The position numbers and the translations under genes are program-made. The notes below the pieces were generated by a model that was given only the letters and a program-made list of their open reading frames with translations, was not told where the DNA came from and did no database searches. This document shows positions 10,001 to 51,593 of a stretch of DNA of 64,000 nucleotides, one piece after another. The DNA is taken from the NCBI GenBank assembly GCA_965250285.1, contig OZ252299.1:4000001-4064000 (forward strand), in the 5' to 3' direction. Each line of letters begins with the position of its first letter. Position 1 is the first letter of the stretch. The DNA comes from Myxococcota bacterium. GTDB taxonomy: Bacteria; Myxococcota_A; UBA9160; UBA4427.

Positions 10001-10444
10001 ATGGCAGGACCCCTGACGATGACGAAGGCCGAGCGCGAGGCGTTCCTGGCCGAGGTGCACGTGGGTGTGATCAGCATCGAGCGCGACGGCGCCGCGCCGC
10101 TCGCCGTGCCGATCTGGTACGACTACACACCTGATCTCGGCGTCTGGGTGCTGACCGAGCCGACGTCGCAGAAGGGCCAGGCGCTCGAGGCCGCCGGCCG
10201 GTTCTCGCTGTGCGCACAGGTCGAAGAGCCGCCCGGCTACCGCTACGTGAGCGTCTCGGGTCCGATCGTCGAGACACGTCCGGCGGATCGCGAGCGCGAC
10301 AGCCGACCGATGGCCCACCGCTACTTCGGCCCCGAGCTCGGCGACTGGTACGTCGAGAGCAACCCCGGCGCATCGAACGTGTACATCATGCAGCCCGAGC
10401 GCTGGTGGACGGTCGACTACCGCAAGCTCGCGCCCGGCAGCTGA
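10001..10444 (+). CDS. Pyridoxamine 5'-phosphate oxidase-like split-barrel protein (PPOX class)
   Basis: MTKAEREAFLAEVHVGVISI...PLAVPIWY...YRYVSVSG; AGGAG SD before ATG 10001. Confidence 0.85.
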   Translation: MAGPLTMTKAEREAFLAEVHVGVISIERDGAAPLAVPIWYDYTPDLGVWVLTEPTSQKGQALEAAGRFSLCAQVEEPPGYRYVSVSGPIVETRPADRERDSRPMAHRYFGPELGDWYVESNPGASNVYIMQPERWWTVDYRKLAPGS

Positions 10445-10457
10445 GCCGCCGCCCGTC

Positions 10458-12161: not shown

Positions 12162-12426
12162 CGCTCGAAGGCGGAGCAGCCTCCCCGTCGAGTCCCTCTT
12201 CGAGCGGCTTCCAGTGGAAGAGCCCGTAGATCAGCGTCTGCACGAAGTGATGGCCCATCGAGCCACCCGCGCGCTCGAACACCGGTCGCTTCCAGACGAA
12301 CTCGACGACGTGGGCGACGAGCGTGATCACGAAGGCCCACTTGCCGACCGTCGCGATCATGCCGCTGCCGAGAAACCATGCCGCCGCGGAGGCGACCCAG
12401 AAGATCCAGATACCCTGCTTCTGCAT
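12154..12426 (-). CDS. Small membrane protein (DUF1145-like)
   Basis: 90 aa, hydrophobic, LVAHVVE and HHFVQTLIYGLFHWKP; its stop overlaps the oxygenase start. Confidence 0.6.
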   Translation of the reverse strand: MQKQGIWIFWVASAAAWFLGSGMIATVGKWAFVITLVAHVVEFVWKRPVFERAGGSMGHHFVQTLIYGLFHWKPLEEGLDGEAAPPSSGA

Positions 12427-12583
12427 GCTCGAACGGGTAGCGTGACGGCCCGGGGGCAGCCACCCGCCGATCGCGCCCGACCGGCGCAGCCCCGACGTGA
12501 ACACACCCCATTCGCCGCCCCGCATCCCGCGGGTCAAGCGCCCCGCTGCGGCCAACCCATCGAGGTCGACGACTCGGAGGGCC

Positions 12584-13630
12584 TCAGGCGCTCTCCTGCT
12601 TCACGAGCTCGACCCCACGACCGAGCATGTCGAGGCGGTCGCCTTCGCTGCGACCCGTCGGGTGCAGCATCAGCTCGTCGATGCCGACGTCGCGGTAGCT
12701 GCGGATGCGCTCGCGCACCCGGGCCTCGTCGCCGATCAGCGTCGTCTGCCACACCATCTCGTCGGGCACCGCGGCCGCAGCGCCCGCGCGGTCGCCCGAG
12801 AGCCAGATGTCGCGCACCTCGGTGCACGCCTGCTCGAAGCCGCTGCGCGCATAGGCATCGTTGTAGAAGTTGACGGTGGGTGAGCCCATCGCCGAGAGCT
12901 GGAACGCGATCATCGGCTTCTGGCTCTGGATCAACGGCTCGGGATCGTCGGTGATCGCCACCGTCACGTTGACGCACAGCGAGAGGTCCGCCAGCGACCG
13001 GCCGGCCTTGTCGGCGCCGCGTCGCAGATGCTCGAGGTGGGCCTCGGCCGCATCGGGCGTGAACGACGTACCGAGCCAGCCGTCGGCAAGCTCGCCGGTC
13101 AGCTCGAGCGCCCGCGGCGTGAGCGTCGCCAGATGGATCGGCACGTCGACCGGCGGGAGCGCGAGTCGCAGCGCCTTGCCCTGTCCGCCGGGGCGGGGCA
13201 GCGAGAACGCGCGCCCCTCGTAGGCGAGCTTCTCGCCGCGCGAGGCCAGCCGTACGATGTCGATCGTCTCGCGCATGCGCGTGAGGGGCCGATCGAAAGG
13301 CTGGGCGTGCAGGCCCTCGACCACCTGGGGCCCCGAGTTGCCGAGCCCGAGGATGAAGCGCCCGCCGGTCACGGTATCCATGCTGAGCGCCGTCATCGCC
13401 GTCGAAGCGGGCGTGCGCGCGCAGACCTGCATGATGCCCGTGCCCAGCTCGAGCCGCGTGGTGCGGGCGGCGATGAACGCGAGCGGGGTCACCGCGTCCA
13501 TGCCCCAGGCCTCGGCGCTCCAGGCGCGGTCGACGCCGAGCTTCTCGGCTTCGACGCTGAGCTGCACGATCGACTCGAAGTGTTCTCGGCCGCCCGTGTT
13601 CGGTCCGCCCACGCGAATCGACGTCTTCAT
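12584..13630 (-). CDS. LLM-class (probably F420-dependent) oxidoreductase
   Basis: AEKLG...WSAEAWGMDAVTPLAFIAA.T, GRFILGLGNSGPQVVEGLH, ELTGELADGW; start ATG 13630. Confidence 0.88.
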   Translation of the reverse strand: MKTSIRVGGPNTGGREHFESIVQLSVEAEKLGVDRAWSAEAWGMDAVTPLAFIAARTTRLELGTGIMQVCARTPASTAMTALSMDTVTGGRFILGLGNSGPQVVEGLHAQPFDRPLTRMRETIDIVRLASRGEKLAYEGRAFSLPRPGGQGKALRLALPPVDVPIHLATLTPRALELTGELADGWLGTSFTPDAAEAHLEHLRRGADKAGRSLADLSLCVNVTVAITDDPEPLIQSQKPMIAFQLSAMGSPTVNFYNDAYARSGFEQACTEVRDIWLSGDRAGAAAAVPDEMVWQTTLIGDEARVRERIRSYRDVGIDELMLHPTGRSEGDRLDMLGRGVELVKQESA

Positions 13631-34533: not shown

Positions 34534-35670
34534 TCAGATCGGCTGACGCGCCATCTTGCGCAGGGCGCCGAGCTTCGCCGAGTCGGGGACGAGACGCAGC
34601 ACGGCGTCGCGGGCTCGGCACGTCCACCGACCCTCGAGCTGCCCGACCTGCCCCAGTCGACGCGACTGATTCTGCACCCAGCGGACACGCGAGATGCGGC
34701 GGTCGTAGAGCCGAGGCAGCAGCGCGTCGACCGAGAGCCGCTCCTGCAATAGATCGGCGAGGACCCAGGCGTCTTCGAGCGCCATCGCGGCGCCCTGGCC
34801 GATGTTGGGCGTCATGGCGTGCGCGGCGTCCCCGAGCAGGAGCACCCGGCCAGCGAACCACGGCCCGTCGACCCGCTCTTCGAGGTCGTTGTGAATCAGC
34901 TCCTCGGGCTTGCGCAGCGCGTCGAGCACGGCCGGGATCTGCCCACCGAACTCGGCAAACGTCGCTCGAAAACGCTCGATGCGACCCTCGGGCGGGTCGG
35001 GCCGGCCGCGCGGCGCGTTCGCGGTGGCGAAGCAGTAGCTGCGGCCGCCGCTGATCGGCACGACGCCGAAGCGCTTGCCTCGACCCCACATCTCGCGCAG
35101 CGCGACCTCGTCAGATTCGAGGTCGACGACACACCGCCAGCACGTGTAGCCGGAATACGAGAGCGCCTCGGGCCCGAAGAGCAGCTCGCGTACTCGTGAT
35201 CGCACGCCGTCGGCGCCAATGACGAGCCCGAAACGCTCCTCTCGGCCGTCGGTGAGCCGAACGTCCACCGCATCGCCGCGCTGCTCGATCTCGTCGACGC
35301 TCGTGCCGAGCGAGATCGGCACGCCCTTCGCCGCCTCGAGCAGCACGTCGTGCAGCTCGGCGCGATGCAACGCAATGGTCGGGCCGAACTCGGGCTCGAG
35401 GAGCGCGAAGTCGGTGCTGCCGATCGGCCGGTCGAGGTGGTCGGTGATCGCACCGCGGCCGAGCGCCGTGCCGACTTCGACAATGCGGTCTGCGAGGCCG
35501 AGCTCACGCATCACGCGCATGGCGTTCACACCGAGCACGATGCCGGCCCCGATGGGTGCCCAGGCCTCGGTGCGTTCAACGACTTCGCAGGGGACGCCCG
35601 CGCGCGCGAGGCCCACGGCCGTCGCCAGGCCGCCGATCCCGCCCCCGACGATGAGTGTGCGCTCGGTCAT
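34534..35670 (-). CDS. FAD-dependent monooxygenase (salicylate hydroxylase-like class A)
   Basis: IVGGGIGGL, IGADGVRS, LLGDAAHAMTPNIGQGA; ATGA overlap with the TetR stop. Confidence 0.92.
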   Translation of the reverse strand: MTERTLIVGGGIGGLATAVGLARAGVPCEVVERTEAWAPIGAGIVLGVNAMRVMRELGLADRIVEVGTALGRGAITDHLDRPIGSTDFALLEPEFGPTIALHRAELHDVLLEAAKGVPISLGTSVDEIEQRGDAVDVRLTDGREERFGLVIGADGVRSRVRELLFGPEALSYSGYTCWRCVVDLESDEVALREMWGRGKRFGVVPISGGRSYCFATANAPRGRPDPPEGRIERFRATFAEFGGQIPAVLDALRKPEELIHNDLEERVDGPWFAGRVLLLGDAAHAMTPNIGQGAAMALEDAWVLADLLQERLSVDALLPRLYDRRISRVRWVQNQSRRLGQVGQLEGRWTCRARDAVLRLVPDSAKLGALRKMARQPI

Positions 35671-36365
35671 TGTGACTCTCCCCTTCTTCTCTTTCGTCTC
35701 ACTCGTTTCTTCGCGGGTTCGGTCACCGCGATCCCCTGGAGCTGGAGCTCCAGCGAACGGCGCAGACCGCGTTCGGCGGCCGTTTGCCCGACGGCGCCGG
35801 TGCCCAGCCAGAGCTGAACCCAGAGCACGTAGTGCGCGCCGAGCGCTTGCGTGAGCTCGGCGACCGAGCAGTCGCCCCGCAGCTCGCCGCCTGCCACGCC
35901 GTCTTCGACGATCCGACGCACGCGACCGAAGAACTCGGCCGACTGCCGCTTCATGCCGTCGGTCTGATCGGGTCGGTAGAGCAGATCCTGCACGAAGACG
36001 CTGGCGAGCGGTCGATCGCGGCCGTACATGCGAAGCAACGCCCCGAACAGCGTCATCGCACCTTCGAGCACGCTCTCGCCGGGGCGCAGGCCCGTCGGCA
36101 CGCGCGCGAAGACGCGGGTCGCGAGGGGCTCGAAGATCAGGAAGAGCAGCTCGCGCTTGTCCTTCACATACAGAAAGAGCGTGCCCGTCGCGATCCCGGC
36201 GTGCTCGCAGATCTGGCGCCCCGTCGTCGCTTCGAAGCCCTGCTCGCGAAAGAGCTCGGTCGCCGCCGCAATGATGCGCGCGAGCTTCTCGCGCTTGTTC
36301 TGCTCGCGGCGCCCTTCCCCGGCGCGTGAGGCGGCGGGGGTCGGCCTTGCAGCTGTCGGGGAAAT
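35667..36365 (-). CDS. TetR/AcrR regulator (start codon uncertain, possibly ATT)
   Basis: RREQNKREKLARIIAAATELFREQGFEATT..ICEHAGIATGTLFLYVKDK HTH. Confidence 0.85.
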   Translation of the reverse strand: MSPTAARPTPAASRAGEGRREQNKREKLARIIAAATELFREQGFEATTGRQICEHAGIATGTLFLYVKDKRELLFLIFEPLATRVFARVPTGLRPGESVLEGAMTLFGALLRMYGRDRPLASVFVQDLLYRPDQTDGMKRQSAEFFGRVRRIVEDGVAGGELRGDCSVAELTQALGAHYVLWVQLWLGTGAVGQTAAERGLRRSLELQLQGIAVTEPAKKRVRRKRRRGESQ

Positions 36366-36380
36366 CGGCGGGCCTCCATA

Positions 36381-36402
36381 AAAAATGATCGTGATCAGTT
36401 TT
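36381..36402. promoter_or_regulatory. AT-rich palindrome, probable TetR auto-operator
   Basis: AAAAATGATC-GT-GATCAGTTTT (9/10 arm match) immediately upstream of the tetR. Confidence 0.6.
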
Positions 36403-36881
36403 AGCACAGCCGTGCCGGCGCGCACACGCGGGGCGCGCCGAAGGCACGCGAGCGCCGCTCCCCCGACGCGCGCGCCGACTCGACGGCAATGACGCATTGC
36501 ACCGCAAACGACGGGCGATGGAGGCATTGCGCATGTCAACGAATCGCGTTCGTATTCGAATGTGCGATCCCGCCTCGGCGTTGAGGTCGATCAGAGACGA
36601 GAGTGGGGGTTTTCACCGAGCGATGACGAAGAGAGTGTCACCCGACGCACGCGCTTCGCGAAACGTTGTAGTGACACCCCTTCACTCCACCGTTCATCCT
36701 GATCGATGCATACGCGACAGTACGCCGCTCCGCGCAAGTCCAATGAAACTCCATTGTGTCACCTCTTGCCGTGCGCGCGCTTCCGACGTAATCGTTCGAA
36801 CGGGGAAAGTCTTGTTGTTTCGAGGCCATGGCCGGTCGACAGCGCTTTCGGTCACCGCGCACGTGGTGTGGGGGAGGCACG

Positions 36882-39818
36882 ATGGTCACTCGCGTCGTCT
36901 GCGGCTCACGCTCGGTTCACTCCAACATCATTCGCACATGCTTCACGGTGCTGTGCCTGTTGGCCCTCGCGATCCCCATCGGCGACGCGATGGCGCAAGA
37001 CCCCGAAGATGTCCCGGTCGAGATCGACGAGGTCACGGCCGAAGAGATCCCCGAGGTCGACGAGTTCGATGAGATCGACGAGGTCGTCGACATCGATGAC
37101 GACCCGACCGCCGACGACATCCCCGCCGCCGATCAAGCCAACATCGGCGGAGAAGAGCCGAGCGGCCGGGGCATCGAAACCATCACCGTGACCGCGCGCA
37201 AGCGCGAAGACGACCTTCAGGACGTCCCGATCCCGATGACCGCCTTCTCGGGCCAGACCCTCGACGTCAACCGCATCGAAGACACGCTCGATCTCCAGTT
37301 CAACGTGCCGAACCTTCTCTTCAGCCGGACGAACTTCACGGGCTCGAACCTGCAGATTCGCGGCATCGGCAATCAGGTCGTCGCCGCGAGCGGAGAACCT
37401 GCGATCGGTATCCACGTCAATGAAGTCCCGCTGACCGCTTCTCGGCTCTTCGAGCAGGAGTTCTTCGACATCGAGCGCATCGAGGTGCTGCGCGGTCCCC
37501 AGGGCACGCTCTTCGGACGCAATGCGACGGGTGGCGCGTTCAATATCTACACGCGCAAGCCCACTGATGAGTACGAGGCCACTGGCGAGGTCTCGGCCGG
37601 CAACTACAAGTCGGCCCGCGTGAAGGGTGCGGTGAACATTCCGCTCACCGACAGCCTGCGCACGCGCGTCGCCGGCATGTACCTGCGACGCGACGGGTTC
37701 ATCGAGAATCTCAATACCGGCAACGACATCGACGACCGAAGCCTCTACGGCGTGCGCGGCAGCATCATCTGGGAGCTGACCGACAACTTCTCGATGGACG
37801 GCATGGTCTCGTGGTTCAAAGAGAACGACAAGCGCTCTCGGATCGGCAAGCAGCTGTGTACGAAGGACGACCGCCCAGGCGTCTACAGCCTCGGCTGCAC
37901 GGACGCGCCACCGACGACCGAGAGCGTCGCGAGCTATGCGACGCTCGGCGGCATCCTCGAGCAGCACACGATTCCGCTGCTCGGCCCGTTCTTCGGTCCC
38001 CCCTTCGACACGCTGCAGCCGCTCTACACCCCCGGCTACGACCTGCCAGCGATTGGCGTCGTCTCGGACCCCTTCGATGCCGAAGGCTTCAACCCGCCCG
38101 ACCTGCGACAGCACTTCTCGCGGATCGACCCCAGCTACGAGGCGGACGAGCTCTTTGCGAATCTCGCCTTCAACTTCGATCAGGACTACGGCTCATTCAA
38201 GGCCCTCTTCGGGTACCAGAAGACCTCGATTCACACCGTGCAGGACTACAACATGGGGTCGCCGACGATCCCGTACAACAATGCCGCCGGCCTCGCCGCG
38301 GCCATCGCGCTCGCCGGCATGACGAACTGCACGTCGGCCTCGGGCAACCCCGGCTTCACCGACGATCGCTTCGGCTGGGACTTCGGCTGCGCCGACCGCA
38401 GCTTCGCTCAGGACAACTCGGATGCGGAGGCGGTGCAGGTGAGCGCCGAAGGCCGCTTCACGTCGGACTTCGACGGCCCGTTCAACTTCACGGCCGGCAT
38501 GATCTACACCTACTTCAGCGTCAGCACCGACTACCGCGTCTTCTTCTCGGGCGCCGAGCTGGCGTCGCGCATCTGGTCGCTGATCGATACGTCATACGAC
38601 GTCGAGAACCTGCGGCACTTCAACAACGAGTCCGATCCGGCCCGCACGAAGTCGTTCGGCCTCTTCGCCGAGGGCGAGTACGAGTTTGGCGAGAGCTGGA
38701 CCTTCACCGGCGGCCTCCGGTACACCAACGACCAGAAGGAACAGCGCTCCCGCAACTACCTGCTGAACGGGTTCCTCACCGGCAGCACGAGCTCGCTGCC
38801 TCAGTTCGAGAAGCAGGAGGCGTCGTGGAACGAGGTCACGGGCCGCGCGATCATCCAGAAGGATCTCGACCTCGACTTCGCCGATCAAGCCAACGTCTTC
38901 CTATCATACTCACGCGGCTACAAGCCCGGCGGCTTCAATCCGCCGGCCGCGGCGGATTTCCCCGGCACGAGCGAGACGTTCGACCCCGAGTACATCAACG
39001 CCTACGAGCTGGGCACCAAGGCGCGGTGGCTCGAGAACACGCTGCAAACCAACGCGAGCGTGTTCTTCTATGACTACAGGGGCTATCAGATCTCGAAGAT
39101 CGTGAACCGCACGTCGGTGAACGAGAACGTCGATGCGTTTGTCTGGGGCGCCGAGCTCGAGCTCGTCTATGAGGTCATCGAGAACTTCTTCTTCACGACG
39201 AACTTCGCCTACCTCGGCACCAAGATTCGCGATGCCGAGTCGCTCGATCCGGCCGATCCGGTCGGGGGCGAGCCGGGTTGGGCTGCGATCAAGCGGCTTG
39301 ACAACGCATCGAACATCGTGTGTGTATCTGCGGATGGCATCAACTGCGACATTCCTCCGCCCGCAGAGGGCTCAGCCGAGCCCTTTTTCCCGGCCACATA
39401 CGAGGACGCAGATGGCAATCTGAACCCAGGCTACGCAGAAGGCTTTGCCAAAGACCTGAACGGCAATGAGCTGCCGAACGCGCCCAAATTCAACATCAAC
39501 ATCGGCGCGAGCTACACGTTCAAGCTGATCGTCCCCGGCGAGTTCACACCGCGCATCAGCTACTACTGGCAGAGCGAGATGTACGGCCGGCTCTTCAATA
39601 GCGAGCGCGACAAGATCGGAGCATGGTCACAGGCGAACGCCGGGCTTCGCTGGAACGACGACGAGAACCGCGTCTGGGTCGATTTCTGGATCCAGAACTT
39701 CACGAACAACAACGACATCACGACGCAGTACTTCACCGACGCGAGCTCGGGCAACTTCACGAACGTGTTCCTGCTCGACCCGCTGACGGTCGGCGGCACG
39801 GTCGGCTTCAGCTTCTAG
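36882..39818 (+). CDS. TonB-dependent outer-membrane receptor
   Basis: Signal peptide, TonB box ETITVTARKRE, plug IEVLRGPQGTLFGRNATGGA, SRGYKPGGFN, C-terminal Phe; GGAGG SD. Confidence 0.95.
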   Translation: MVTRVVCGSRSVHSNIIRTCFTVLCLLALAIPIGDAMAQDPEDVPVEIDEVTAEEIPEVDEFDEIDEVVDIDDDPTADDIPAADQANIGGEEPSGRGIETITVTARKREDDLQDVPIPMTAFSGQTLDVNRIEDTLDLQFNVPNLLFSRTNFTGSNLQIRGIGNQVVAASGEPAIGIHVNEVPLTASRLFEQEFFDIERIEVLRGPQGTLFGRNATGGAFNIYTRKPTDEYEATGEVSAGNYKSARVKGAVNIPLTDSLRTRVAGMYLRRDGFIENLNTGNDIDDRSLYGVRGSIIWELTDNFSMDGMVSWFKENDKRSRIGKQLCTKDDRPGVYSLGCTDAPPTTESVASYATLGGILEQHTIPLLGPFFGPPFDTLQPLYTPGYDLPAIGVVSDPFDAEGFNPPDLRQHFSRIDPSYEADELFANLAFNFDQDYGSFKALFGYQKTSIHTVQDYNMGSPTIPYNNAAGLAAAIALAGMTNCTSASGNPGFTDDRFGWDFGCADRSFAQDNSDAEAVQVSAEGRFTSDFDGPFNFTAGMIYTYFSVSTDYRVFFSGAELASRIWSLIDTSYDVENLRHFNNESDPARTKSFGLFAEGEYEFGESWTFTGGLRYTNDQKEQRSRNYLLNGFLTGSTSSLPQFEKQEASWNEVTGRAIIQKDLDLDFADQANVFLSYSRGYKPGGFNPPAAADFPGTSETFDPEYINAYELGTKARWLENTLQTNASVFFYDYRGYQISKIVNRTSVNENVDAFVWGAELELVYEVIENFFFTTNFAYLGTKIRDAESLDPADPVGGEPGWAAIKRLDNASNIVCVSADGINCDIPPPAEGSAEPFFPATYEDADGNLNPGYAEGFAKDLNGNELPNAPKFNINIGASYTFKLIVPGEFTPRISYYWQSEMYGRLFNSERDKIGAWSQANAGLRWNDDENRVWVDFWIQNFTNNNDITTQYFTDASSGNFTNVFLLDPLTVGGTVGFSF

Positions 39819-39837
39819 TGGACTGAGCCAGGCCGGC

Positions 39838-40980
39838 CTAGAGGATCAAGGCGGCGAGCTTGCGCCGCTGGAAGAGCGCGTCACCGAATTGGCTCTCGCC
39901 CCAGATCGCGCGGCGGCGATACAGGCCGGCGTCGCACTCGTACGTGAAGCCGTAGCCACCGTGGAACTGGATCGCGCGGTCGCCCACGAACGCGAGCGCC
40001 GGGCCAGCGGCCGCCTTCGCCATGCGCACGGCGACCTCTCCTTCTTCGCCGCGCTCGAATGTGTGGGCCGCCGCGTAGACGTGCGACCGCGCCTGCTCGA
40101 TGCGCACGTGCGCATCGACCGTCGTGTGCTTGAGTGCCTGGTACGCGCCGATCGGGCGCCCGAACTGCTTGCGCGTCACCAGCCGCTCGACCGTCGTGTC
40201 GATGCAGCTCGCGCCGGCGCCGACCATGTCGGCGCTGGCGAGCAACGCGCCAGCGAGCTCGAGCCGCGCGAGGCCGGCGTCGATCCGCCCCGCATCGAGC
40301 AGCGCGCCCGCGGGCACGCGCACGCCATCGAGCTCGAGCGCGAACGAGCGCCGCGTCTCGTCGATGACAATCTCGCGCCGCATCGAGCAGGCCGCGAGCG
40401 CATCGGCATCGAGGAGCATCAGCGCCGCCCGCCCATCGAGCGTGACCGACACGATCGCGTACTGCGCCACGTGCGCATCGAGCACGAACGTCTTCGTGCC
40501 CGCGAGCGCGATCTCGCCCCCCTCGCGCTTCGCGGTGCATGCGCCGTGGGCGGCCTCCCAGTCGCCACCGGGCTCGCTCAGGGCGAGTGTGGCCGGCTCG
40601 CCCGAGACGAGCTTCGGCAACACGTCGCGCTGCTGCGCCTCGGTCCCGGCCGCGATCAGCAGCTGCGCGGCGAGGGTCGTCGAGACGAATGGACCGGCCA
40701 TCAGGCGGCGCCCCATCTGCTCGACGACTGGCACGGCCTCGGCGAGCTCGAGGCCGGCGCCGCCGAAGGCCTCCGGCACGGCGATCCCGAGCCAGCCGAG
40801 TTCGGCCACCTCGGCGAAGACCGACGGATCGTGGCCGACCTCGTCGTCGATGAGCTCGCGCACGCGCGACATCGGCGATTTGTCGTGGCAGTACTTCGAG
40901 GCCGACTCGAGCAGCTCGGCCTGCTCTTCGCTCAGGCCGATCCGGCCGGCCCGCTCACGCGCCGCGTCGAGATCACTCAT
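39838..40980 (-). CDS. Acyl-CoA dehydrogenase, second subunit of a tandem pair
   Basis: ELGWLGI.VPE..GG.G, ALSEP, RKQFGRPIGAYQALKH, IQFHGGYGFTYE. Confidence 0.9.
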   Translation of the reverse strand: MSDLDAARERAGRIGLSEEQAELLESASKYCHDKSPMSRVRELIDDEVGHDPSVFAEVAELGWLGIAVPEAFGGAGLELAEAVPVVEQMGRRLMAGPFVSTTLAAQLLIAAGTEAQQRDVLPKLVSGEPATLALSEPGGDWEAAHGACTAKREGGEIALAGTKTFVLDAHVAQYAIVSVTLDGRAALMLLDADALAACSMRREIVIDETRRSFALELDGVRVPAGALLDAGRIDAGLARLELAGALLASADMVGAGASCIDTTVERLVTRKQFGRPIGAYQALKHTTVDAHVRIEQARSHVYAAAHTFERGEEGEVAVRMAKAAAGPALAFVGDRAIQFHGGYGFTYECDAGLYRRRAIWGESQFGDALFQRRKLAALIL

Positions 40981-42203
40981 CGCTTGGCCCCCGCGTTGTG
41001 CTTCGGAAGACCGAGCACGTGCTCGGCGACGATGTTCGCCTGCACCTGGCTGGTGCCGCCGCCGATCGTCGCCGAGAAGGCGTTGAGATAGGCACGCTGC
41101 CAGAGTCCGCCATCGACGGCCTCGGGCTCATCGATCCAGTAGCCGCCGCGGGCGCCCTGCATGGTGATGGCGAACTCGTTGAGCCGGCGTACGAACTCGG
41201 TGTTCATCAGCTTGCCCGAGAGCGGCAGCGACATCGGCCGATCCTGAACGAGCGGGCCGATGGCCGCCCGGGCCATCGAGAGCTGGATCCCGCGCCCCTC
41301 GATCATCAGCTCGACGAGCTTGTCGGCCACGACCGGGTCTTCAGCCGCGGGCCGTCCGCCGCGTCGGACGCGCCGAGCGAGGTCGATCGTGCCCTCGTGG
41401 TCGGGCACCGTGATCGAGAAGCCGCCCGCCTGGCCGCCTCGCGCGTTTCGCTCGTACTCGAGCGTGCGCATCGCGACGGCCCAGCCCTGGCCCTCCTCGC
41501 CCATCAGGCAGTCGGCGGGGATCCGCGCATCGGTGAAGTACGTCTCGGTGAAACCGTACTCGCCCGTCAGCTTGCGAATCGGAACGGCCTCGACGCCTTC
41601 GACGGTCATCGGCGCGAGAAAGAACGAGAGCCCGGCATACTTGCTCGGCGCATCGGGGTTCGTTCGCGCGAGCAGGATCATGTACTTGGCGTAGTTGCCG
41701 TGGGTCGTCCACGTCTTGGTCCCGTTGATCACCCAGGCGTCGCCCTCGCGCACCGCGCGGGTCTGGGCGTTGCCGAGATCGCTGCCGTTTTCGGGCTCGC
41801 TGAAGCCCTGACACCAGATGTCTTCGGCCGACAGGATGCCCTTGATGTAGCGATGCCGTTCTGCCTCGCTTCCCATGTCGAGGATCAGCGGCCCGGCCCA
41901 GCTGAGGCCGATCGTATTCATCATGATCGGGCTGCCGTTGCGGCGCATCTCGTCGGTCGCGATGTCCTGGAACGCCTGATGCAGTCCGCCGCCGCCGTAC
42001 TCGGCGGGCCACGCCGCGCCGAGGTAGCCCGCTTCGTAGACGCGGCGCTGCCAATCGCGAAGAAAGTCGAACTGCTGGTCGGTGCCCACCTCCATGAAGG
42101 TGAGCGGGAGCATGAAGTCGGGCTGGGGTGGAACGTTCTCGGCAAACCACGCTGCGCACTGCGCGCGAAAGTCGTCGAGCTCGTTCTGGGGCGGTCTCGG
42201 CAT
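40977..42203 (-). CDS. Acyl-CoA dehydrogenase, first subunit of a tandem pair
   Basis: WPAEYGGGG, WCQGFSEPENGSDL, INGTKTWTT, LEYER, TIGGGTSQVQ.NIVAE.VLGLP. Confidence 0.92.
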   Translation of the reverse strand: MPRPPQNELDDFRAQCAAWFAENVPPQPDFMLPLTFMEVGTDQQFDFLRDWQRRVYEAGYLGAAWPAEYGGGGLHQAFQDIATDEMRRNGSPIMMNTIGLSWAGPLILDMGSEAERHRYIKGILSAEDIWCQGFSEPENGSDLGNAQTRAVREGDAWVINGTKTWTTHGNYAKYMILLARTNPDAPSKYAGLSFFLAPMTVEGVEAVPIRKLTGEYGFTETYFTDARIPADCLMGEEGQGWAVAMRTLEYERNARGGQAGGFSITVPDHEGTIDLARRVRRGGRPAAEDPVVADKLVELMIEGRGIQLSMARAAIGPLVQDRPMSLPLSGKLMNTEFVRRLNEFAITMQGARGGYWIDEPEAVDGGLWQRAYLNAFSATIGGGTSQVQANIVAEHVLGLPKHNAGAKR

Positions 42204-42309: not shown

Positions 42310-43959
42310 TCATGGGCAGGAGATCGCCGCCCCGATCTCGCCTTCTTCGACCACCCCGTCGACGTTCGCGTCGTCGAATGAGAAGCAGCCCGAGCACTCG
42401 GCATCGCCGTGCAGATTGAAGTGGCCACCGACGCCGAGATCGACCAGGCGAGCCCCGTCGCGGTTCACGCTCACGTCCCCGAACACGAGACAATCGACCG
42501 CGCTGAAATCTTCGACGTGGACGTTCAGATTGCCGTGCACTTCGCACTGGGCGATCGACGAACGGCCGTTGTTTTGGTTGAAGCTCGCGTCGCCCAGCAG
42601 GCGAACCCCGCGCAGGCTGACCCGGCCCTCGTGTGCGTTCAGGTTGCCATCGACGACCGAGCGATCGGGCCCGAGCCCCAGCACCGCGACGTTGGCGTCG
42701 ATTCCGAGATTGAGGTCGGCCATCGCGGGCGCATCGGCGTTGTCGAGGACTTCGATCAGGGTGTCGAAGCCCGGCGCGTGCAGGTCGATGCTCGAAGTAC
42801 GTGCCGTGGCGTCGATCACGTCGGTTCCCGGGCCGGTCGCGTAGCAGAGCGTGTCGAAGCGCGCGTCGTCGACGTCGATGACATCGGCGACGGTGGTGCG
42901 ATCGCATACGCCCGCCCGGTCGTCGGCGCCGATGCAGCCGTCGCCGTCGACCTCGTCGGGACAGAACGCGTCGTCGACGCCCACCCAGTCGCCGTTCGAG
43001 TACACGACGACGTCCTGCTCCTCGAAGCCGGGCGGCTGATCCGAGCCCGGGCCGTCGCCGCCGCCACCGGGCGGATCCGTCGGCTCCGGCGGATCAGTGG
43101 GATCTGAGCCGTCGTCTCGACACTCGATCGATCCCGTCCGCTCCTCGGGCTCGACCCGATCGTCGCCGTTGCGGTCGTCGAACGAGTAGCAGCCCGAGCA
43201 CCGCGCATCGCCGTGCTGGTTGAAGTGGCCGCCGACGCCCAGACCGACGAGGGTCGCACCATCGCGGTTGATGCTGACGTCGCCGAACACGCGACAGCCC
43301 ACGGCGCTGAACTGCTCGACGTGCACGTTCAGGTTGCCGAGGATGCGGCAGTAGGCGATCGACGAGCGACCGTCGTTCGAGTTGAAGCTCGCATCGCCTT
43401 CGAGGGTGACATTGCGCAGGCTGACGTTGCCGCGGTGCGCGTTCAGATGGCCGCGCACGATCGACCGATCGGGCCCTGCTCCGAAGACGGCCACGTTCGC
43501 CCCGAGGTCGAGATTGAGATCGCCCCGCGCCGGTGAGCTGGCGTTCTCGTCGACCACGACGAGCGTGTCGCCGCGATCGCCGTACAGGTTGAGGCTCTCG
43601 TCGAGCGACGTCGCATCGATCACGTCGACCGCATCGCCGGTCGCGTAGCAGAGGACATCGAAGTGCTCGCCCGCCACCACGGCGACGTCGGCCACATCCG
43701 TGTCGGCGCAGGCGTCGGCGCGGGCGCCGGCGCCGACGCAGCCGTCGCCTTCGACCTGGTCGCCGCAGAAGTCGTCGTTCGACGCCGTGGAGAGGCCATT
43801 CTCGTAGTAGACGACCTCCCCCTGCTCGAAGCCAGGCGCCGAGATCACGCCGATGCCGCCCTCGTCGAGCAGCGGCTCGGTACACCCCGTACCGATCAGC
43901 GCAACGAGACCGAGAGGGAGGGTCAGCGTCAGAACGCGGCTCAGCCGCCTGGCCGTCAT
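42310..43959 (-). CDS. Cys-rich lipoprotein with two tandem 239-aa repeats (unknown function)
   Basis: Signal ending ALIGTG|C, GGGAGG SD; repeats at 43836-43120 and 43032-42316 separated by a Pro/Gly/Asp linker. Confidence 0.8.
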   Translation of the reverse strand: MTARRLSRVLTLTLPLGLVALIGTGCTEPLLDEGGIGVISAPGFEQGEVVYYENGLSTASNDDFCGDQVEGDGCVGAGARADACADTDVADVAVVAGEHFDVLCYATGDAVDVIDATSLDESLNLYGDRGDTLVVVDENASSPARGDLNLDLGANVAVFGAGPDRSIVRGHLNAHRGNVSLRNVTLEGDASFNSNDGRSSIAYCRILGNLNVHVEQFSAVGCRVFGDVSINRDGATLVGLGVGGHFNQHGDARCSGCYSFDDRNGDDRVEPEERTGSIECRDDGSDPTDPPEPTDPPGGGGDGPGSDQPPGFEEQDVVVYSNGDWVGVDDAFCPDEVDGDGCIGADDRAGVCDRTTVADVIDVDDARFDTLCYATGPGTDVIDATARTSSIDLHAPGFDTLIEVLDNADAPAMADLNLGIDANVAVLGLGPDRSVVDGNLNAHEGRVSLRGVRLLGDASFNQNNGRSSIAQCEVHGNLNVHVEDFSAVDCLVFGDVSVNRDGARLVDLGVGGHFNLHGDAECSGCFSFDDANVDGVVEEGEIGAAISCP

Positions 43960-43999: not shown

Positions 44000-44215
44000 T
44001 CACGTGCCACCGGGCGCGCTGCCGTCGGCGTTCAGACCGCGCGCTGCGCGGTGGGCCATGACCTCGACTCGATACTCGCAGTCGACGCACTGGCGCATCG
44101 CTCGCTTCATGTTCTCGTTCTGAGCGCGCAGCCGATCGATCTCGTCCCGCAGCGCCTTCGGGTCTTCCTTCGCTTCAACCCGACCGAGGATCCGCCCGAG
44201 CAGACTCGCAATCAA
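44000..44215 (-). CDS. Small coiled-coil protein with CxxC (71 aa)
   Basis: TTG start overlaps the upstream TGA (TTGA); LRDEIDRLRAQNENMKRAMRQCVDC; GC3-biased codons. Confidence 0.6.
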   Translation of the reverse strand: MIASLLGRILGRVEAKEDPKALRDEIDRLRAQNENMKRAMRQCVDCEYRVEVMAHRAARGLNADGSAPGGT

Positions 44216-45039
44216 GCGCCCGGCTTCCACGTCATGCGCGCGGTACACGATGTCTCGGGCAGGTGCGGCTCGAACTCCATCCGCAGCGCCGTGTCCTCAC
44301 CGTTCATCAGGGCCTCGAACGCGCCCTTGCAGATCAGCAGGCAGCCCTCTTCGGGCAGCTTGTCGGGGTTCGGCAGATCCTCCTGTCGACCGCAGACGTG
44401 CCAGGCGCAGTCGGGGATCTCCATCGTCACCTTGCCGTGTGCGGGGTCGTACTCGCTGATCTTCGCCGGTCCGGTCAGGAAGCCGGCCGGGTTGAACATG
44501 TCGAAGACCAGAGACTGAAACCACGTCGGCTCGGTCGAGCCGTCTGCGGCGCGGCGCGTCTTCTGCTTCGTCTTGGCGGCGGGCTCCTTGGCCATGCCAT
44601 CCATCATCTCGAAGAACTCCGCCGAGTTCTCGCGGCCGAGCGCCGCGGCGGTCCCGACGACGATGTCCTCGTACTGCGCCTGGCTGAAGTGCTTGCGCAG
44701 CTCGAGCAGAGCCCACTCGGCTTCGCGCACGAAGTTGCCGTAGCGCTTGCGCCAACGTTCGCGTGGCGAGTCGAACAGACGGATCTTCTCGCGGCGCGCC
44801 TTGATGTCGGCCCAACCGCGGTCGACCACCTCGGGGTCGGTCGTCATGCGGAGGATCGGCAGAAACGTGTAGGGCACGAGCGGGCCTGCGCGATCGACGA
44901 GCATGCGCTTCGACATCACCATGTCGATCCACGCCTGGGGCCCCCAGTGGTACAGCAGCCCGCGCCCCTGCGACGCCGGGCCCGAGCGTGCGCTCGGCGC
45001 CGAGGCAGACTCGATGAGCGGTGCAGATTCGCTGGCCAT
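44212..45039 (-). CDS. Hypothetical protein with DWARF27 (D27/DUF4033)-like Cys-rich C-terminal domain
   Basis: FLTGP...EIPDCAWHVC...GCLLICK...MEFEPHLPETSC; GGAGG SD. The CDS is solid; the family call is by-eye. Confidence 0.6.
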   Translation of the reverse strand: MASESAPLIESASAPSARSGPASQGRGLLYHWGPQAWIDMVMSKRMLVDRAGPLVPYTFLPILRMTTDPEVVDRGWADIKARREKIRLFDSPRERWRKRYGNFVREAEWALLELRKHFSQAQYEDIVVGTAAALGRENSAEFFEMMDGMAKEPAAKTKQKTRRAADGSTEPTWFQSLVFDMFNPAGFLTGPAKISEYDPAHGKVTMEIPDCAWHVCGRQEDLPNPDKLPEEGCLLICKGAFEALMNGEDTALRMEFEPHLPETSCTARMTWKPGA

Positions 45040-45225
45040 CGGGCACCTCCCGCGCCGCGAAGCGGCGCCTCAACGCCCTCAAGTTAGCAGTCGCCCGCGT
45101 GCCCGCGTCGCGGCCGGGCGAGCGAGGATACGCCTGGCCTCGGATCCGACAAATCAAGTGGCCGCACTCCATGCGCATGTCGAGACCGAGATCGCTGTGC
45201 GCACAAGAGGCCCGACGAGGCTGGC

Positions 45226-47443: not shown

Positions 47444-48061
47444 TCAACCCTCGTTCATCGCCTCGCCCAGCTCGCGCGCCTCGGCCGCATCGATCCCCAA
47501 CGCGCGCAGCCCGCGCTCGATCGCGCGCCCGATGGTGAATGCATCGGCCTGGCCTTCGATGATGCGCCGAATCGTCATCAGCAGCAGACCGAAGACCTGG
47601 TCGATGGTCGCATCGTCGGGGCCCGTCTCGAAGCGACCCTGGGCGTGTCCCAACGCCAGGTCTTCGCGCAGGTAGCCATCGATGTTCTGATGGACGTAGG
47701 GGCGGTGTACCAGCCGCAGCAGCACGCGCCCCCAGGTCGGATCGGCCTCGGCATGGCGCAGCACCCGCGTGCTCGCGATCGCGAAGCGCAGCGCGGGATC
47801 ATCGACGGGCTCGTTCGCGGCGTCTTCGGCCAGGGCGACGACGACGTCAGCCGCGAGCGCGTCGAGCAGCGATTCGCGATCGGGGAAGTAGTTGTAGAAG
47901 GTGCCGTTCGCGACGCCCGCCTCGGCCGTGACGTCGCTGACCGAGAGCGCCTCGCCCTTCTCGGCCAGCACCCGCAGGCCGGCCTCGACGAGGCCGCGGC
48001 GGGTCTTCTCTCGCTTGCGGAAGCCCCGCGTCGGGGGCGTGAGGTCGCTCTGGGTCGCCAT
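47444..48061 (-). CDS. TetR/AcrR regulator, divergent from the aromatic catabolic operon
   Basis: KREKTRRGLVEAG...SVSDVTAEAGVANGTFYNYFPDR. Confidence 0.9.
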   Translation of the reverse strand: MATQSDLTPPTRGFRKREKTRRGLVEAGLRVLAEKGEALSVSDVTAEAGVANGTFYNYFPDRESLLDALAADVVVALAEDAANEPVDDPALRFAIASTRVLRHAEADPTWGRVLLRLVHRPYVHQNIDGYLREDLALGHAQGRFETGPDDATIDQVFGLLLMTIRRIIEGQADAFTIGRAIERGLRALGIDAAEARELGEAMNEG

Positions 48062-48067
48062 GGGCGC

Positions 48068-48118
48068 ATCCTAGCCGAAAAATGAGATCCTTTTCAATAT
48101 TGACAATAGTCTCATTTT
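48068..48118. promoter_or_regulatory. Divergent promoters with 40-bp palindromic operator
   Basis: AAAATGAGATCCTTTTCAAT|ATTGACAATAGTCTCATTTT (48079-48118, 16/20 arm match) contains TTGACA on plus; TTGAAA-N18-TAGGAT on minus. Confidence 0.7.
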
Positions 48119-48175
48119 ACGATGAACTCCATCGCGATGGCCGGCCTGCCCGTCGGCTCGGCCCGGAGGATCCCC

Positions 48176-49108
48176 ATGGCGCTCCACAGCTTCCTCGGCA
48201 TGCAGATCGGCGTGCCCACACCCGAGGATCTCGCGACGTTCTACGCCGGCCTCGGCCTCGAGGGTCGCGACGCGCGATGGGGCAGCGCCGACTGTCCCGA
48301 CCAGATCGAGATCGTCGAGCACCCCTATCGACAGCTGCGCACGCTGCGCGTCGGCTGCGATGCGGAGGCCGACCTCGATGCGCTCCGCGGCCGACTGCGC
48401 GGGCTCGGCATCGACAGCACGCAGCGCGAAGGGCGCGTGGTCTGCCTCGACCCGACGGGCACCTGGCGCATTCAGGTCGAGGTGGCCGAGCCCCTCACGC
48501 TGTCGTCGCCGCCCGAGCGCCCGCTCAATCGGCCGGGGTCGCGCGGTCGACCGAACGACCGGGCCGAGGTCGTGGTCGAGTCGACGCCGCGGCCGCCGCG
48601 GCGACTCGGTCACGTGGTGGTCGGCTCGCCCGACCCGCTCGGCACCGCCAAGTTCTTCATGGATGGGATCGGCTTTCGCCTGTCCGACGTCGTCGGCGGG
48701 CTGCTCACCTTCATGCGGTGTTCGAGCGATCACCACAACCTGCTGGTGATGCCGGCGCCCTGCCCCTACCTCAACCACTACGCCTTCGAGCACGACGACG
48801 TCGACGCCGTCGGTGCAGCGGCCCGTCGCTACCTCGAGGGTCAGACAGAACGTCACGTGGTCGGGATGGGACGGCACGTCGTGGGGTCGAACGTCTTCTG
48901 GTACATGAACGACCCCACCGGCACCATGTTCGAGCTGTTCAGCGACATGGACGACATCCCCGACGACGAAGCCTGGACGCCCGGTACCGATTGGGAGCTC
49001 GGTCGCTTCTCGTCGTGGGGCCCGCCGGAGCCGCCGCCCGAGTTCGTCGTGCCGGCCGATATCGAAGACATCGTAAAGGCGCACCAGGCGTCGATGGAGG
49101 CATCGTGA
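48176..49108 (+). CDS. Two-domain VOC protein, extradiol ring-cleavage dioxygenase-like
   Basis: RRLGHVV, DHHNL, LNHYAF, GRH..GSN.FWY..DP.G.MFE; GGAGG SD. Confidence 0.8.
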   Translation: MALHSFLGMQIGVPTPEDLATFYAGLGLEGRDARWGSADCPDQIEIVEHPYRQLRTLRVGCDAEADLDALRGRLRGLGIDSTQREGRVVCLDPTGTWRIQVEVAEPLTLSSPPERPLNRPGSRGRPNDRAEVVVESTPRPPRRLGHVVVGSPDPLGTAKFFMDGIGFRLSDVVGGLLTFMRCSSDHHNLLVMPAPCPYLNHYAFEHDDVDAVGAAARRYLEGQTERHVVGMGRHVVGSNVFWYMNDPTGTMFELFSDMDDIPDDEAWTPGTDWELGRFSSWGPPEPPPEFVVPADIEDIVKAHQASMEAS

Positions 49109-49884
49109 ATCTCGGGATCGAAGGCAAACGGGCCATCGTCTGTGCATCGAGCCGCGGGCTCGGCCGAGCCTGCGCCGAGTCGCTCGCGCGCGAGGGCGTG
49201 CACGTGGTGCTGAACGCGAGGGACGCCGACGGGCTCGAGGCGACCGCGAGCGAGCTGCGGGCGGCGTTCGGCGTCGAGGTCGACAGCGTCGCCGGCGACA
49301 TCGAAGACGAGTCGACCCGCGACGCCCTCATCGCCGCGTGCCCGGCGCCCGACATCCTCGTGAACAACAACGGCGGGCCGCCGCCAGGCGCCTTCCGCGA
49401 CTGGGATCGCGATGCCTGGATCGCCGCGCTCGACGCAAACATGCTCGCCCCGGTGCTGATGATCCGCGCCGTGCTCGACGGCATGGTCGAGCGCCGCTTC
49501 GGCCGCATCGTCAACATCACGTCGGCCATGGTGAAGACCCCGCTCGCCCCGATGGGGCTGTCGACCGGGGCGCGCACGGGGCTGACTTCGGTGGCGAAGG
49601 CGCTCTCGAAGCAGGTGGCGCACGCCAACGTGACGCTCAACAACATCCTGCCCGAACGCATCGATACCGGTCGGCAGAAGCAGATGGCCGAGCTGCGCGC
49701 CCGCATCGGCGGCGTGACGATCGAGCAGGCCTACGACGAGATGAAGGCGTCGATCGCAGCCCAGCGTCTCGGTGAACCGAACGAGGTCGGCGATGCCTGT
49801 GCCTACCTCTGCAGCGCCCAGGCCGGATTCATCTCGGGCCAGAACCTGCAGCTCGACGGCGGCAGCTACGCCGGGCTCGTTTGA
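49105..49884 (+). CDS. SDR family oxidoreductase (atypical active site)
   Basis: ASSRGLG, NNNGGPPPG, SGQNLQLDGG; S-x3-R in place of YxxxK; GTGA overlap. Confidence 0.88.
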   Translation: MNLGIEGKRAIVCASSRGLGRACAESLAREGVHVVLNARDADGLEATASELRAAFGVEVDSVAGDIEDESTRDALIAACPAPDILVNNNGGPPPGAFRDWDRDAWIAALDANMLAPVLMIRAVLDGMVERRFGRIVNITSAMVKTPLAPMGLSTGARTGLTSVAKALSKQVAHANVTLNNILPERIDTGRQKQMAELRARIGGVTIEQAYDEMKASIAAQRLGEPNEVGDACAYLCSAQAGFISGQNLQLDGGSYAGLV

Positions 49885-49895
49885 GGAGCAGACCC

Positions 49896-51593
49896 ATGAA
49901 GCGCATCGAAGTGCCGTTTCTCGTCGTCGGCGGCGGACCCGTCGGCATGCTGGCTGCGATCCACCTCGCTCGCGACGGACGCGACGTCCTCGTGATCGAG
50001 CGGCGAGGCGGCCCGCAGAAGGCACCGGCTGCCCACGTGATCAACGCGCGCACGCTCGAGATCGCGCGCCAGGCCGGGCTCGACATGCAGGCGATCGACG
50101 CCATCGCCACCGACCCGGCCGATGGCAGTCGGGTCTTCTTTCTCACGCGCCTCAACGGCGAGGTCTTCGGCGAGCTGCCCTTCGAGCAGCAGGGCGAAGA
50201 CTGCCTTCGACACACGCCGACGCCGCTGCGCAACATCTCGCAGCATCACCTCGAACCGATCCTGGTCGACGCACTCGAAGCGAGCGACCGCGCCACGCTG
50301 CGCTACGGCTGCCAGTGGGAAGACGCCGTGCAGGACGACGAAGGCGTGACGTCGACCGTGCGGGACGTCGCGACCGGTGAGACGTTCGAGATTCGCAGCC
50401 GCTGGGTGCTCGCGGCCGACGGCGCAGGCAGCCGGGTGCGCAAGTGGACGGGCATCGAGATGGAAGGCCCGCCCAGCCTGCAGACGTTCATGATGATTCA
50501 CTTCGAGGCGAACCTGCGCGAGGTCGTGAAGGATCACCCGGGCGTGCTCTACTGGGTGCTCGATCCCGAGTGCGCTGCGACCCTCGTCGCCCACGACATC
50601 GAGCGCGAGTGGGTCTGTATGGTCGGGTTCGATCCCGAGAAGGAGAGCGAAGCCGACTTCGACGAGGCGCGCTGCGAGGCGCTGGTGCAGAAGTCGATCG
50701 GCGAGGCCGTACCGCTCGAGATCCTCCACCGGGGCGCGTGGAACATGAGCTGCCAGGTGGCCCAGCGCATGCGGGATGGCCGCGTCTTTCTCGTCGGCGA
50801 CGCCGCCCACCGGTTCCCGCCCACGGGCGGGCTCGGTCTCAACTCGGGTGCACAAGAGGCCCAGGGCCTCACATGGAAGCTCGGCGCCGTCGAAGATGGC
50901 TGGGCCGATGCGGCCCTGCTCGATACGTACGAGATCGAGCGGCGCCCGGTCGCCCAGCACAACGCAGAGCAGAGCCTGAAGAACGCCTCGAAGCTCTTCA
51001 TGATCCACCAGGCGCTCGGCGTCGATGTCGAGCCGACCACCGCGAAGATGCAGGCGACCCTCGCCGACGCGGACGGGCGGCGCCGCGTCGAGGAGGCCAC
51101 CGCAGCCCAGGCCGAGCACTTCGACATGCTCGGTCTGCAGATCGGCTTCGCCTACGAGGCGGGGGCGCTCGTGCCCGATGGCAGCGAAGCGCCCGAGGTC
51201 GAAAACCCGGTGCGCGAGTACGTCGCGTCGAGTCGTCCGGGCGCGCGGCTGCCGCACGCGTGGATCGAGCACGGCGGCGAGACCGCCTCGACGCTCGACC
51301 TGGTGGCCTCGGGCGGCCTCACCCTGCTCAGCCAGGGCGAGCACGAGGCATGGTCGAGCGCGCTGAAGCAGGTCGACGGCGTGCCCGTGCGCCACGTGCG
51401 ATGCGGGGTCGACTTCGACGACCCGAGCGGCCACTGGTCGAGCGTATGCGGCCTCGAATCGAACGGAGCGCTGCTGGTGCGCCCCGACCAGCACGTCGGC
51501 TGGCGCGCAACCCGTCTGACGGCCGATGCGCCCCAGGCCCTCGAGCGGGCGATCGACGCCGTGCGTGGCGTCGCATCCCCCGGGTCGGAGTGA
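49896..51593 (+). CDS. FAD-dependent aromatic monooxygenase (PheA/TfdB-like)
   Basis: VVGGGPVG, AADGAGS.VR, GDAAHRFPPTGGLGLNSG, PGARLPHAW, LVRPDQHVGWR. Confidence 0.9.
   Translation: MKRIEVPFLVVGGGPVGMLAAIHLARDGRDVLVIERRGGPQKAPAAHVINARTLEIARQAGLDMQAIDAIATDPADGSRVFFLTRLNGEVFGELPFEQQGEDCLRHTPTPLRNISQHHLEPILVDALEASDRATLRYGCQWEDAVQDDEGVTSTVRDVATGETFEIRSRWVLAADGAGSRVRKWTGIEMEGPPSLQTFMMIHFEANLREVVKDHPGVLYWVLDPECAATLVAHDIEREWVCMVGFDPEKESEADFDEARCEALVQKSIGEAVPLEILHRGAWNMSCQVAQRMRDGRVFLVGDAAHRFPPTGGLGLNSGAQEAQGLTWKLGAVEDGWADAALLDTYEIERRPVAQHNAEQSLKNASKLFMIHQALGVDVEPTTAKMQATLADADGRRRVEEATAAQAEHFDMLGLQIGFAYEAGALVPDGSEAPEVENPVREYVASSRPGARLPHAWIEHGGETASTLDLVASGGLTLLSQGEHEAWSSALKQVDGVPVRHVRCGVDFDDPSGHWSSVCGLESNGALLVRPDQHVGWRATRLTADAPQALERAIDAVRGVASPGSE

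Follow-up and report, generated by a model that had tools for sequence, protein, structure and literature searches.

A bacterial protein family with profile homology to the plant isomerase D27, encoded with a small CxxC protein in heterotrophic bacteria

The 64-kb window (the whole stretch of DNA analysed here) carries on its minus strand an open reading frame running from 45039 to 44212, whose product of 275 amino acids (P0002) is predicted to consist of N-terminal helices and an H-NOX/TRAPP-like alpha/beta core. A Shine-Dalgarno sequence, GGAGGT, lies at 45045 to 45050 on the same strand, 5 nt before the ATG. The initial annotation had read this gene as a relative of plant DWARF27 (D27) at the head of an operon, and the motifs on which it drew (GFLTGPAKI, MEIPDCAWHVC, GCLLICKGAFE and RMEFEPHLPETSC), the five cysteines (at positions 211, 216, 233, 237 and 265) and the strong Shine-Dalgarno sequence are all present at this locus. 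A small gene for a protein of about 71 residues (44000 to 44215, minus strand) begins at an inferred TTG start that overlaps the stop of the D27-like gene by 4 nt (TTGA). It is followed, after 40 nt, by a lipoprotein-like Cys-rich gene (42310 to 43959, minus strand, 549 amino acids) that has its own Shine-Dalgarno sequence and holds two tandem repeats, 62% identical over 234 amino acids. Scans for promoters and terminators at the D27-like locus gave no signal above that of shuffled sequences.

The D27-like frame is a real gene, since 420 relatives of its product were found at E ≤ 0.001. The best 120 of these 420 share 58-87% identity with it, and none of the 120 has a Pfam domain or a name that indicates a function. 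Among 1.84 billion representatives an HMM search found 92 matches, some from distant subfamilies that are about 30% identical; when the broad alignment was used for a further homolog search, the matches listed were all close members. Neither the 275-residue protein nor its alignment had a named match in Pfam, NCBIfam or the PDB sequences, and none of 7996 candidates scored as a longer, fused form, which is weak evidence on that point. The product belongs to a conserved bacterial family that has no name. Some copies of the gene are fragmented or interrupted (L239:9894-10079, L228, G236:C4 and G320:C1), and one of them still adjoins its oxygenase.

The small gene lies directly downstream of the D27-like gene in 41 of the 52 loci that have a full open reading frame, one of the 11 exceptions being without flank. 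Within the host's class it is present in 15 of 225 genomes, all of them among the 18 that carry the D27-like gene, and in three it is non-adjacent. Its product forms a coiled coil followed by the motif M-R-x-C-x-x-C-(E/D)-Y-R, and after the coiled coil the N, M, R, CxxC and R positions are invariant. No family in Pfam or NCBIfam matches it above cut-off, and the PDB yields generic coiled coils only. The conserved unit is the D27-like gene together with this small CxxC gene. The small protein is likely a dedicated accessory, serving in metal or cluster delivery, in redox maintenance or as a scaffold, and this is the least certain step of our reading. The lipoprotein-like gene, which is possibly co-transcribed here, has no family match, is single-copy in the host genome and occurs in none of the 54 homologous loci; it is the product of an internal duplication and a local passenger outside the conserved unit. 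A conserved three-gene operon is ruled out by that absence, so that of the two downstream genes to which the initial annotation had coupled the D27-like gene, the first is both coupled and conserved and the second is not conserved.

The D27-like beta-carotene isomerases make up the Pfam family PF13225 (D27-like_C, formerly DUF4033), known from plants, algae and cyanobacteria. In the available sections of an account of D27 (PMC13254051), homologues are named only in these three groups, and D27 is described as a protein that has no homology to characterised proteins, aggregates and lacks a solved structure. In the mostly non-subscription literature searched, at the level of listings and abstract openings, we found no description of D27 relatives in heterotrophic bacteria. 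For comparison, a D27 reference set was gathered by scanning for a short motif, as given in the initial annotation; 80 of the 94 stretches found were used and reduced to 28 non-redundant proteins of 170-330 amino acids, 25 of which were aligned. All 25 match PF13225.

A broad alignment of the bacterial family (A2, 30 sequences) matches the 25 D27 proteins strongly [hhalign probability 96.0%, E = 3.9e-9], in a local match of 74 C-terminal columns at 16% identity, whereas an alignment of the close family alone (A1) reaches only 30.6%. The N-terminal, cavity-lining half aligns with D27 at low confidence, and in global mode only. The initial annotation had named V4R and ATC hydrolase as the competing profiles, and D27 outranks both: the same broad alignment gives 2.5% (E = 0.019) against 14 ATC hydrolases and 0.5% (E = 0.12) against 24 V4R regions, which rules out filing the family under either of them. 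The D27 match also exceeds what chance produces, with a score of 67.9 against 9.5-18.8 for 25 column shuffles and 22.6 for the reversed profile, and it persists when every cysteine is masked (E = 1.9e-4). In the opposite direction, the family HMM scores 17.1-30.9 bits on all 25 D27 proteins, as against 12.2 bits or less on the 14 ATC hydrolases and 10.4 or less on V4R. These comparisons bear out the D27 relationship first proposed: judged by sequence profiles, the bacterial family is homologous to D27.

Single sequences stay below the thresholds of the curated families. The 275-residue protein alone has no Pfam match at E ≤ 1, a PF13225 search of the host genome has no match at E ≤ 10, and a D27 HMM run over the six frames of that genome does not place the gene among its best 8 matches. 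Among the best 120 of the 420 relatives, 28 match PF13225 weakly (best E 0.0029) and three match PF14196 (ATC_hydrolase) weakly (best E 0.047). A broader set of 35 proteins, consisting of 34 picked from the 92 representatives and one paralogue, has 17 matches to PF13225 below cut-off (best 23.1 bits, E = 7.1e-5), and no family member tested reaches the curated cut-off of 27 bits. V4R (PF02830) matches none of the 120 close or 35 broader members, and D27-like_C is the recurring best Pfam match across the family. By ESM Atlas features, for which scores under 0.9 are leads only, ATC-hydrolase clusters come first among the named clusters (0.88), and no D27 cluster is among the clusters listed. Unnamed archaeal clusters, most commonly from Helarchaeota and Promethearchaeota, score 0.92 by these features and may be a further branch. 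The bacterial family lies outside the D27 family as Pfam defines it, and we infer that it works in a D27-like way.

The cysteines follow D27 closely. The alignment of the broad family with D27 pairs C211, C233, C237 and C265 with the cysteines of the KCR, GMC, xCK and SC blocks of D27, that is, with C199, C211, C215 and C242 of the rice protein. A 4Fe-4S cluster has been proposed on these four rice residues, and the rice C211A/C215A double mutant is inactive, according to the sections available (PMC13254051). In the best 120 relatives the four positions are kept in 120, 120, 120 and 119 members, respectively, and in the broad set, which includes some duplicates, all four are present in 63 of 64 rows, the exception being a truncated protein. 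C233 and C237 form a CxxxC on a single predicted helix (230-245). The 275-residue protein therefore likely binds a [4Fe-4S] cluster through C211, C233, C237 and C265, by analogy with rice D27, and the retention of the D27 ligand set that the initial annotation suspected holds for these four near-invariant residues. Its fifth cysteine fares otherwise: C216 is replaced by A, V or S in distant subfamilies, and because of this loss it is unlikely to be a ligand. Conservation of all five cysteines is ruled out, C216 being specific to a subfamily.

An AF2 model of the 275-residue protein (pLDDT 85.8, pTM 0.83) arranges its core helices and strands in the order seen in a model of a genuine D27. Foldseek retrieves TRAPP Bet3, H-NOX and BcsD with this model and the same set with the D27 model, in both cases at E of about 0.005-0.4 (best 4.5e-3 for the bacterial model, none ≤ 0.001). 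TRAPP and H-NOX are also the structural neighbours reported for D27 in the sections available of its description (PMC13254051). A wide VIA-align search, in which the N-terminal helices dominate, found nothing at Z ≥ 8, its best match (Z 7.0) being helical only; over the whole core, it gives Z 5.7 for BcsD (rmsd 5.0, 141 aligned) and Z 5.5 for H-NOX (rmsd 5.1, 153 aligned). Helices 54-66 and 173-189 are moderately hydrophobic, which is only suggestive of a deep D27-type cavity whose rim is immersed in the membrane. The predicted fold is probably H-NOX/TRAPP-like, as it is for D27.

The host genome, assembled as one 6.25-Mb contig and 95% complete, has no match to type I or type II reaction centres and none to the phytoene/squalene synthase family PF00494, the controls being positive in both searches. 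Five of five other carriers tested likewise have no match to phytoene synthase (PF00494). The window encodes a TonB-dependent receptor, which is consistent with a diderm host and, together with the lack of reaction-centre matches, agrees with the non-photosynthetic diderm that the initial annotation had supposed. The D27-like family is found in 18 of 225 genomes of the host's class, in 49 of 151 genomes of Halieaceae (the family of L016, Halioglobus), in 5 of 201 genomes of Binatia (the class of L002) and in 5 of 251 genomes of Acidimicrobiales (the order of L025), a patchy distribution.

To describe the surroundings of the gene in other genomes, we surveyed 54 homologous loci and then further non-gammaproteobacterial regions. 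In Gammaproteobacteria the gene belongs to a cluster that holds a divergent RPE65-family oxygenase, sometimes with a TetR regulator, and a TonB-dependent receptor, and that continues through the D27-like gene and the small gene to an SDR, a Zn-ADH, a P450, a ThuA-like protein and an acyl-CoA dehydrogenase. Of the 38 gammaproteobacterial loci, 32 have an RPE65-family oxygenase within 6 kb; among the 32 loci with enough flank, 30 do. Among the 151 Halieaceae genomes, in a tally for which gene lists were matched by hand, the D27-like gene and the oxygenase orthologue occur together in 45, each occurs alone in 4, and both are missing from 98; this co-occurrence reflects one inherited cluster and not 45 events. 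Outside Gammaproteobacteria, an oxygenase lies no more than 10 kb away in 5 of 41 loci (deduplicated by hand): L028 and L222 in the host's class, L234 and L239 in Acidimicrobiales, and L244 in Binatia, the D27-like copy beside the oxygenase in L239 being a fragment. Over the 563 kb of flank examined, chance alone would give 0.6-0.9 such loci [P = 3e-4 to 2e-3 if the five are independent, and 0.02-0.06 if they count as three events]. In the other 36 of the 41 loci, among them that of the 64-kb window, the flank examined contains no oxygenase. The linkage to oxygenases thus spans four lineages, and the pairing recurs, since at least three separate clades are represented among the adjacent oxygenases.

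The oxygenase of the Halieaceae cluster is closer in sequence to stilbene-cleaving enzymes (E = 1e-94) than to the Synechocystis ACO (E = 3e-47), and the clade of the L028 and L222 oxygenases is nearest to carotenoid-cleaving enzymes. All adjacent oxygenases examined, the Halieaceae enzyme included, lack the Tyr101/Lys134 pair, which holds the 4-hydroxyl of stilbenes according to the sections available of PMC8191317, and the neighbouring oxygenases were rejected as 4-hydroxystilbene dioxygenases on this ground. Oxygenases from Sphingopyxis, Plesiocystis and the non-carotenogenic Mycobacterium tuberculosis cleave carotenoids or apocarotenoids, as reported in the part available of PMC5133782.

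Genes of the CrtI superfamily are found in 8 of the 40 non-gammaproteobacterial regions examined and in none of the first 54 loci. The genes immediately upstream of distant D27-like paralogues in L236 and L237 are CRTISO-like (E = 4.7e-78) or CrtO-like (E = 3.9e-52), matches that remain under the family cut-offs. In L236 the gene directly upstream of the paralogue (10397-13273, minus strand) fuses a CRTISO/CrtI-superfamily domain to a GltD-like Fe-S flavoprotein. A catabolic island is common to three lineages (L234/L247/L237, L069/L070, L028/L212 and L242). The island holds genes for a CoA-transferase III, an OYE-type flavoenzyme, an amidohydrolase, a MaoC-like protein and an AMP ligase, and further genes for Rv3169-like and SnoaL-like proteins, a P450 and an oxygenase; several of the genomes carry two D27-like paralogues 11-29 kb apart.

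In the host, the two-gene cassette stands apart from its usual pathway neighbours, and the nearest RPE65-family gene, a divergent one, is 32 kb away. The genome has 10 RPE65-family matches, and the genes found within 10 kb of an oxygenase comprise 7 of its 118 SDRs, 1 of its 40 P450s and none of its 48 acyl-CoA dehydrogenases. At 10458-12161 (minus strand) the window has a divergent RPE65-family gene that scores 137.8 bits, compared with 357-457 for eight typical copies. The host protein most similar to the cluster oxygenase (45% identity) is encoded about 880 kb from the cassette and 6 kb from a ThuA-like orthologue; a ThuA-like gene, this oxygenase relative and a likely P450 fall within 12 kb, at 3154762-3166930 of the host contig, and are possibly a remnant of the same pathway. 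Just downstream of the cassette, window positions 34534-42200 hold an FAD monooxygenase, a TetR regulator, the TonB-dependent receptor and a PimC/PimD-like pair of acyl-CoA dehydrogenases, which are only about 30% identical to their counterparts in the Halieaceae cluster. On the other side, at 47444-51593, a TetR gene is divergent from a gene of the glyoxalase/dioxygenase fold, an SDR and an FAD aromatic-ring hydroxylase, which form a separate operon resembling those of aromatic catabolism.

On balance we favour the view that the 275-residue protein is a [4Fe-4S] cis/trans isomerase of scavenged polyenes of the carotenoid or apocarotenoid type, acting upstream of their oxidative cleavage, a role suggested by analogy with D27 and supported by the recurrent linkage to carotenoid-cleavage-type oxygenases and CrtI-superfamily genes. 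For D27, isomerisation by single-electron transfer in a hydrophobic cavity has been proposed in the sections available of PMC13254051. If the bacterial enzyme worked in the same way, the polyene would enter a hydrophobic cavity, pass one electron to the cluster, rotate about the weakened double bond and take the electron back, and the reaction would therefore be redox-neutral. From the gene neighbours, the TonB-dependent receptor would import the substrate, the D27-like enzyme would set the geometry accepted by the RPE65-family oxygenase, and the SDR/ADH enzymes, the P450 and the acyl-CoA dehydrogenases would process the aldehyde products. In the host, where the cassette and the oxygenases lie apart, the two would work together in trans.

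No particular substrate can be read from the P450 and acyl-CoA neighbours, and a D27-like Fe-S isomerase might act instead on a conjugated alkene other than a carotenoid, for example a polyene lipid, a fragment of a terpenoid, or a compound of the stilbene or styryl class. Lignostilbene and resveratrol dioxygenases come closest to the Halieaceae oxygenase, and as these dioxygenases cleave trans-stilbenes (PMC8191317, in the sections available) a cis-to-trans step would be useful on such a substrate; the islands, moreover, hold many generic enzymes of hydrophobic substrates. We nevertheless consider this reading unlikely, given that the phenol-binding Tyr/Lys pair is missing from the adjacent oxygenases examined, that CrtI-superfamily genes occur in some of the non-gammaproteobacterial regions and that the L028/L222 oxygenases are nearest to carotenoid-cleaving enzymes. 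Less likely still is an Fe-S (de)hydratase, hydrolase or electron-transfer component of the same pathway, with a chemistry nearer to the ATC-hydrolase branch. The dedicated CxxC partner could mean electron transfer, a need for which is not reported for plant D27 in the available part of PMC13254051, and both the language-model features and the few weak PF14196 matches lean towards ATC hydrolase. However, the profile comparison and the family HMM separate the family from ATC hydrolases, as does the ligand pattern (C...CxxxC...C here, C...CxxD...C there). Fe-S hydro-lyases use an open iron site, and four Cys ligands leave none.

The lowest probability among these alternatives goes to a non-catalytic protein that binds a ligand or senses O2 or redox state, in the manner of H-NOX or V4R, and that, by way of its coiled-coil partner, acts as a regulator or chaperone of the pathway. 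A predicted fold resembling that of H-NOX sensors and of the TRAPP subunits that bind lipids, a partner whose coiled coil is leucine-zipper-like, and the frequent placement of the cassette away from oxygenases would all suit a sensor or carrier. Yet neither gene encodes a DNA-binding or signalling domain, the clusters have TetR regulators of their own, the profile match is to the enzyme D27 and not to V4R, and the D27-like gene sits among genes for enzymes. V4R, H-NOX, TRAPP Bet3 and BcsD are sensors or scaffolds, with no polyene enzyme among them; the last three resemble the bacterial family as structural neighbours (Foldseek E 0.005-0.1), and V4R has no sequence-profile match to it. ATC_hydrolase shares the broad fold class and a C-terminal sheet that bears cysteines, with three Cys and an Asp in its alignment.

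Returning to the D27-type isomerase that we favour, the bacterial family has in common with D27 the four cluster cysteines, identical and in the same order, the CxxxCK spacing, the sequence blocks (W/F)L(V/T)GP and P-x-x-x-x-x-SC, a core whose secondary structure is colinear and whose predicted fold is probably H-NOX/TRAPP-like, and a genetic or pathway pairing with a cleavage oxygenase. It differs in that the core is only 16% identical and under the Pfam cut-off, the first two ligands are 15-21 residues apart as against 11 in D27, the non-ligand C207 of D27 has no equivalent across the family, and the bacterial proteins have additional helices at the N-terminus, lack a Cys-rich tail at the C-terminus and come with a CxxC partner gene of their own. 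The setting differs as well: because the bacterial hosts tested have no phytoene synthase match, it would be catabolic and not biosynthetic, unlike that of D27.

A bolder reading, which we advance tentatively and hold to be somewhat less probable than the isomerase role itself, is that the D27-like subunit and the coiled-coil CxxC protein form a two-component D27-type isomerase outside phototrophs, the founding branch of its kind, with which heterotrophic marine, sediment and soil bacteria would make cis carotenoids cleavable and eat them. The cassette would then mark an undescribed bacterial pathway of carotenoid degradation and a bacterial sister lineage of the enzyme that opens strigolactone synthesis. 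A sister family that shares the D27 ligands provides many candidates for structure determination, may let the single-electron-transfer mechanism proposed for D27 be tested directly, and is relevant to the origin of D27; its carriers include named strains such as Seongchinamella unica GH4-78 (L022). The small partner represents a new protein family whose co-occurrence with the D27-like gene is sharp. The linkage to oxygenases in hosts that lack phytoene synthase suggests a route, open to testing, by which microbes may break down carotenoid-type compounds.
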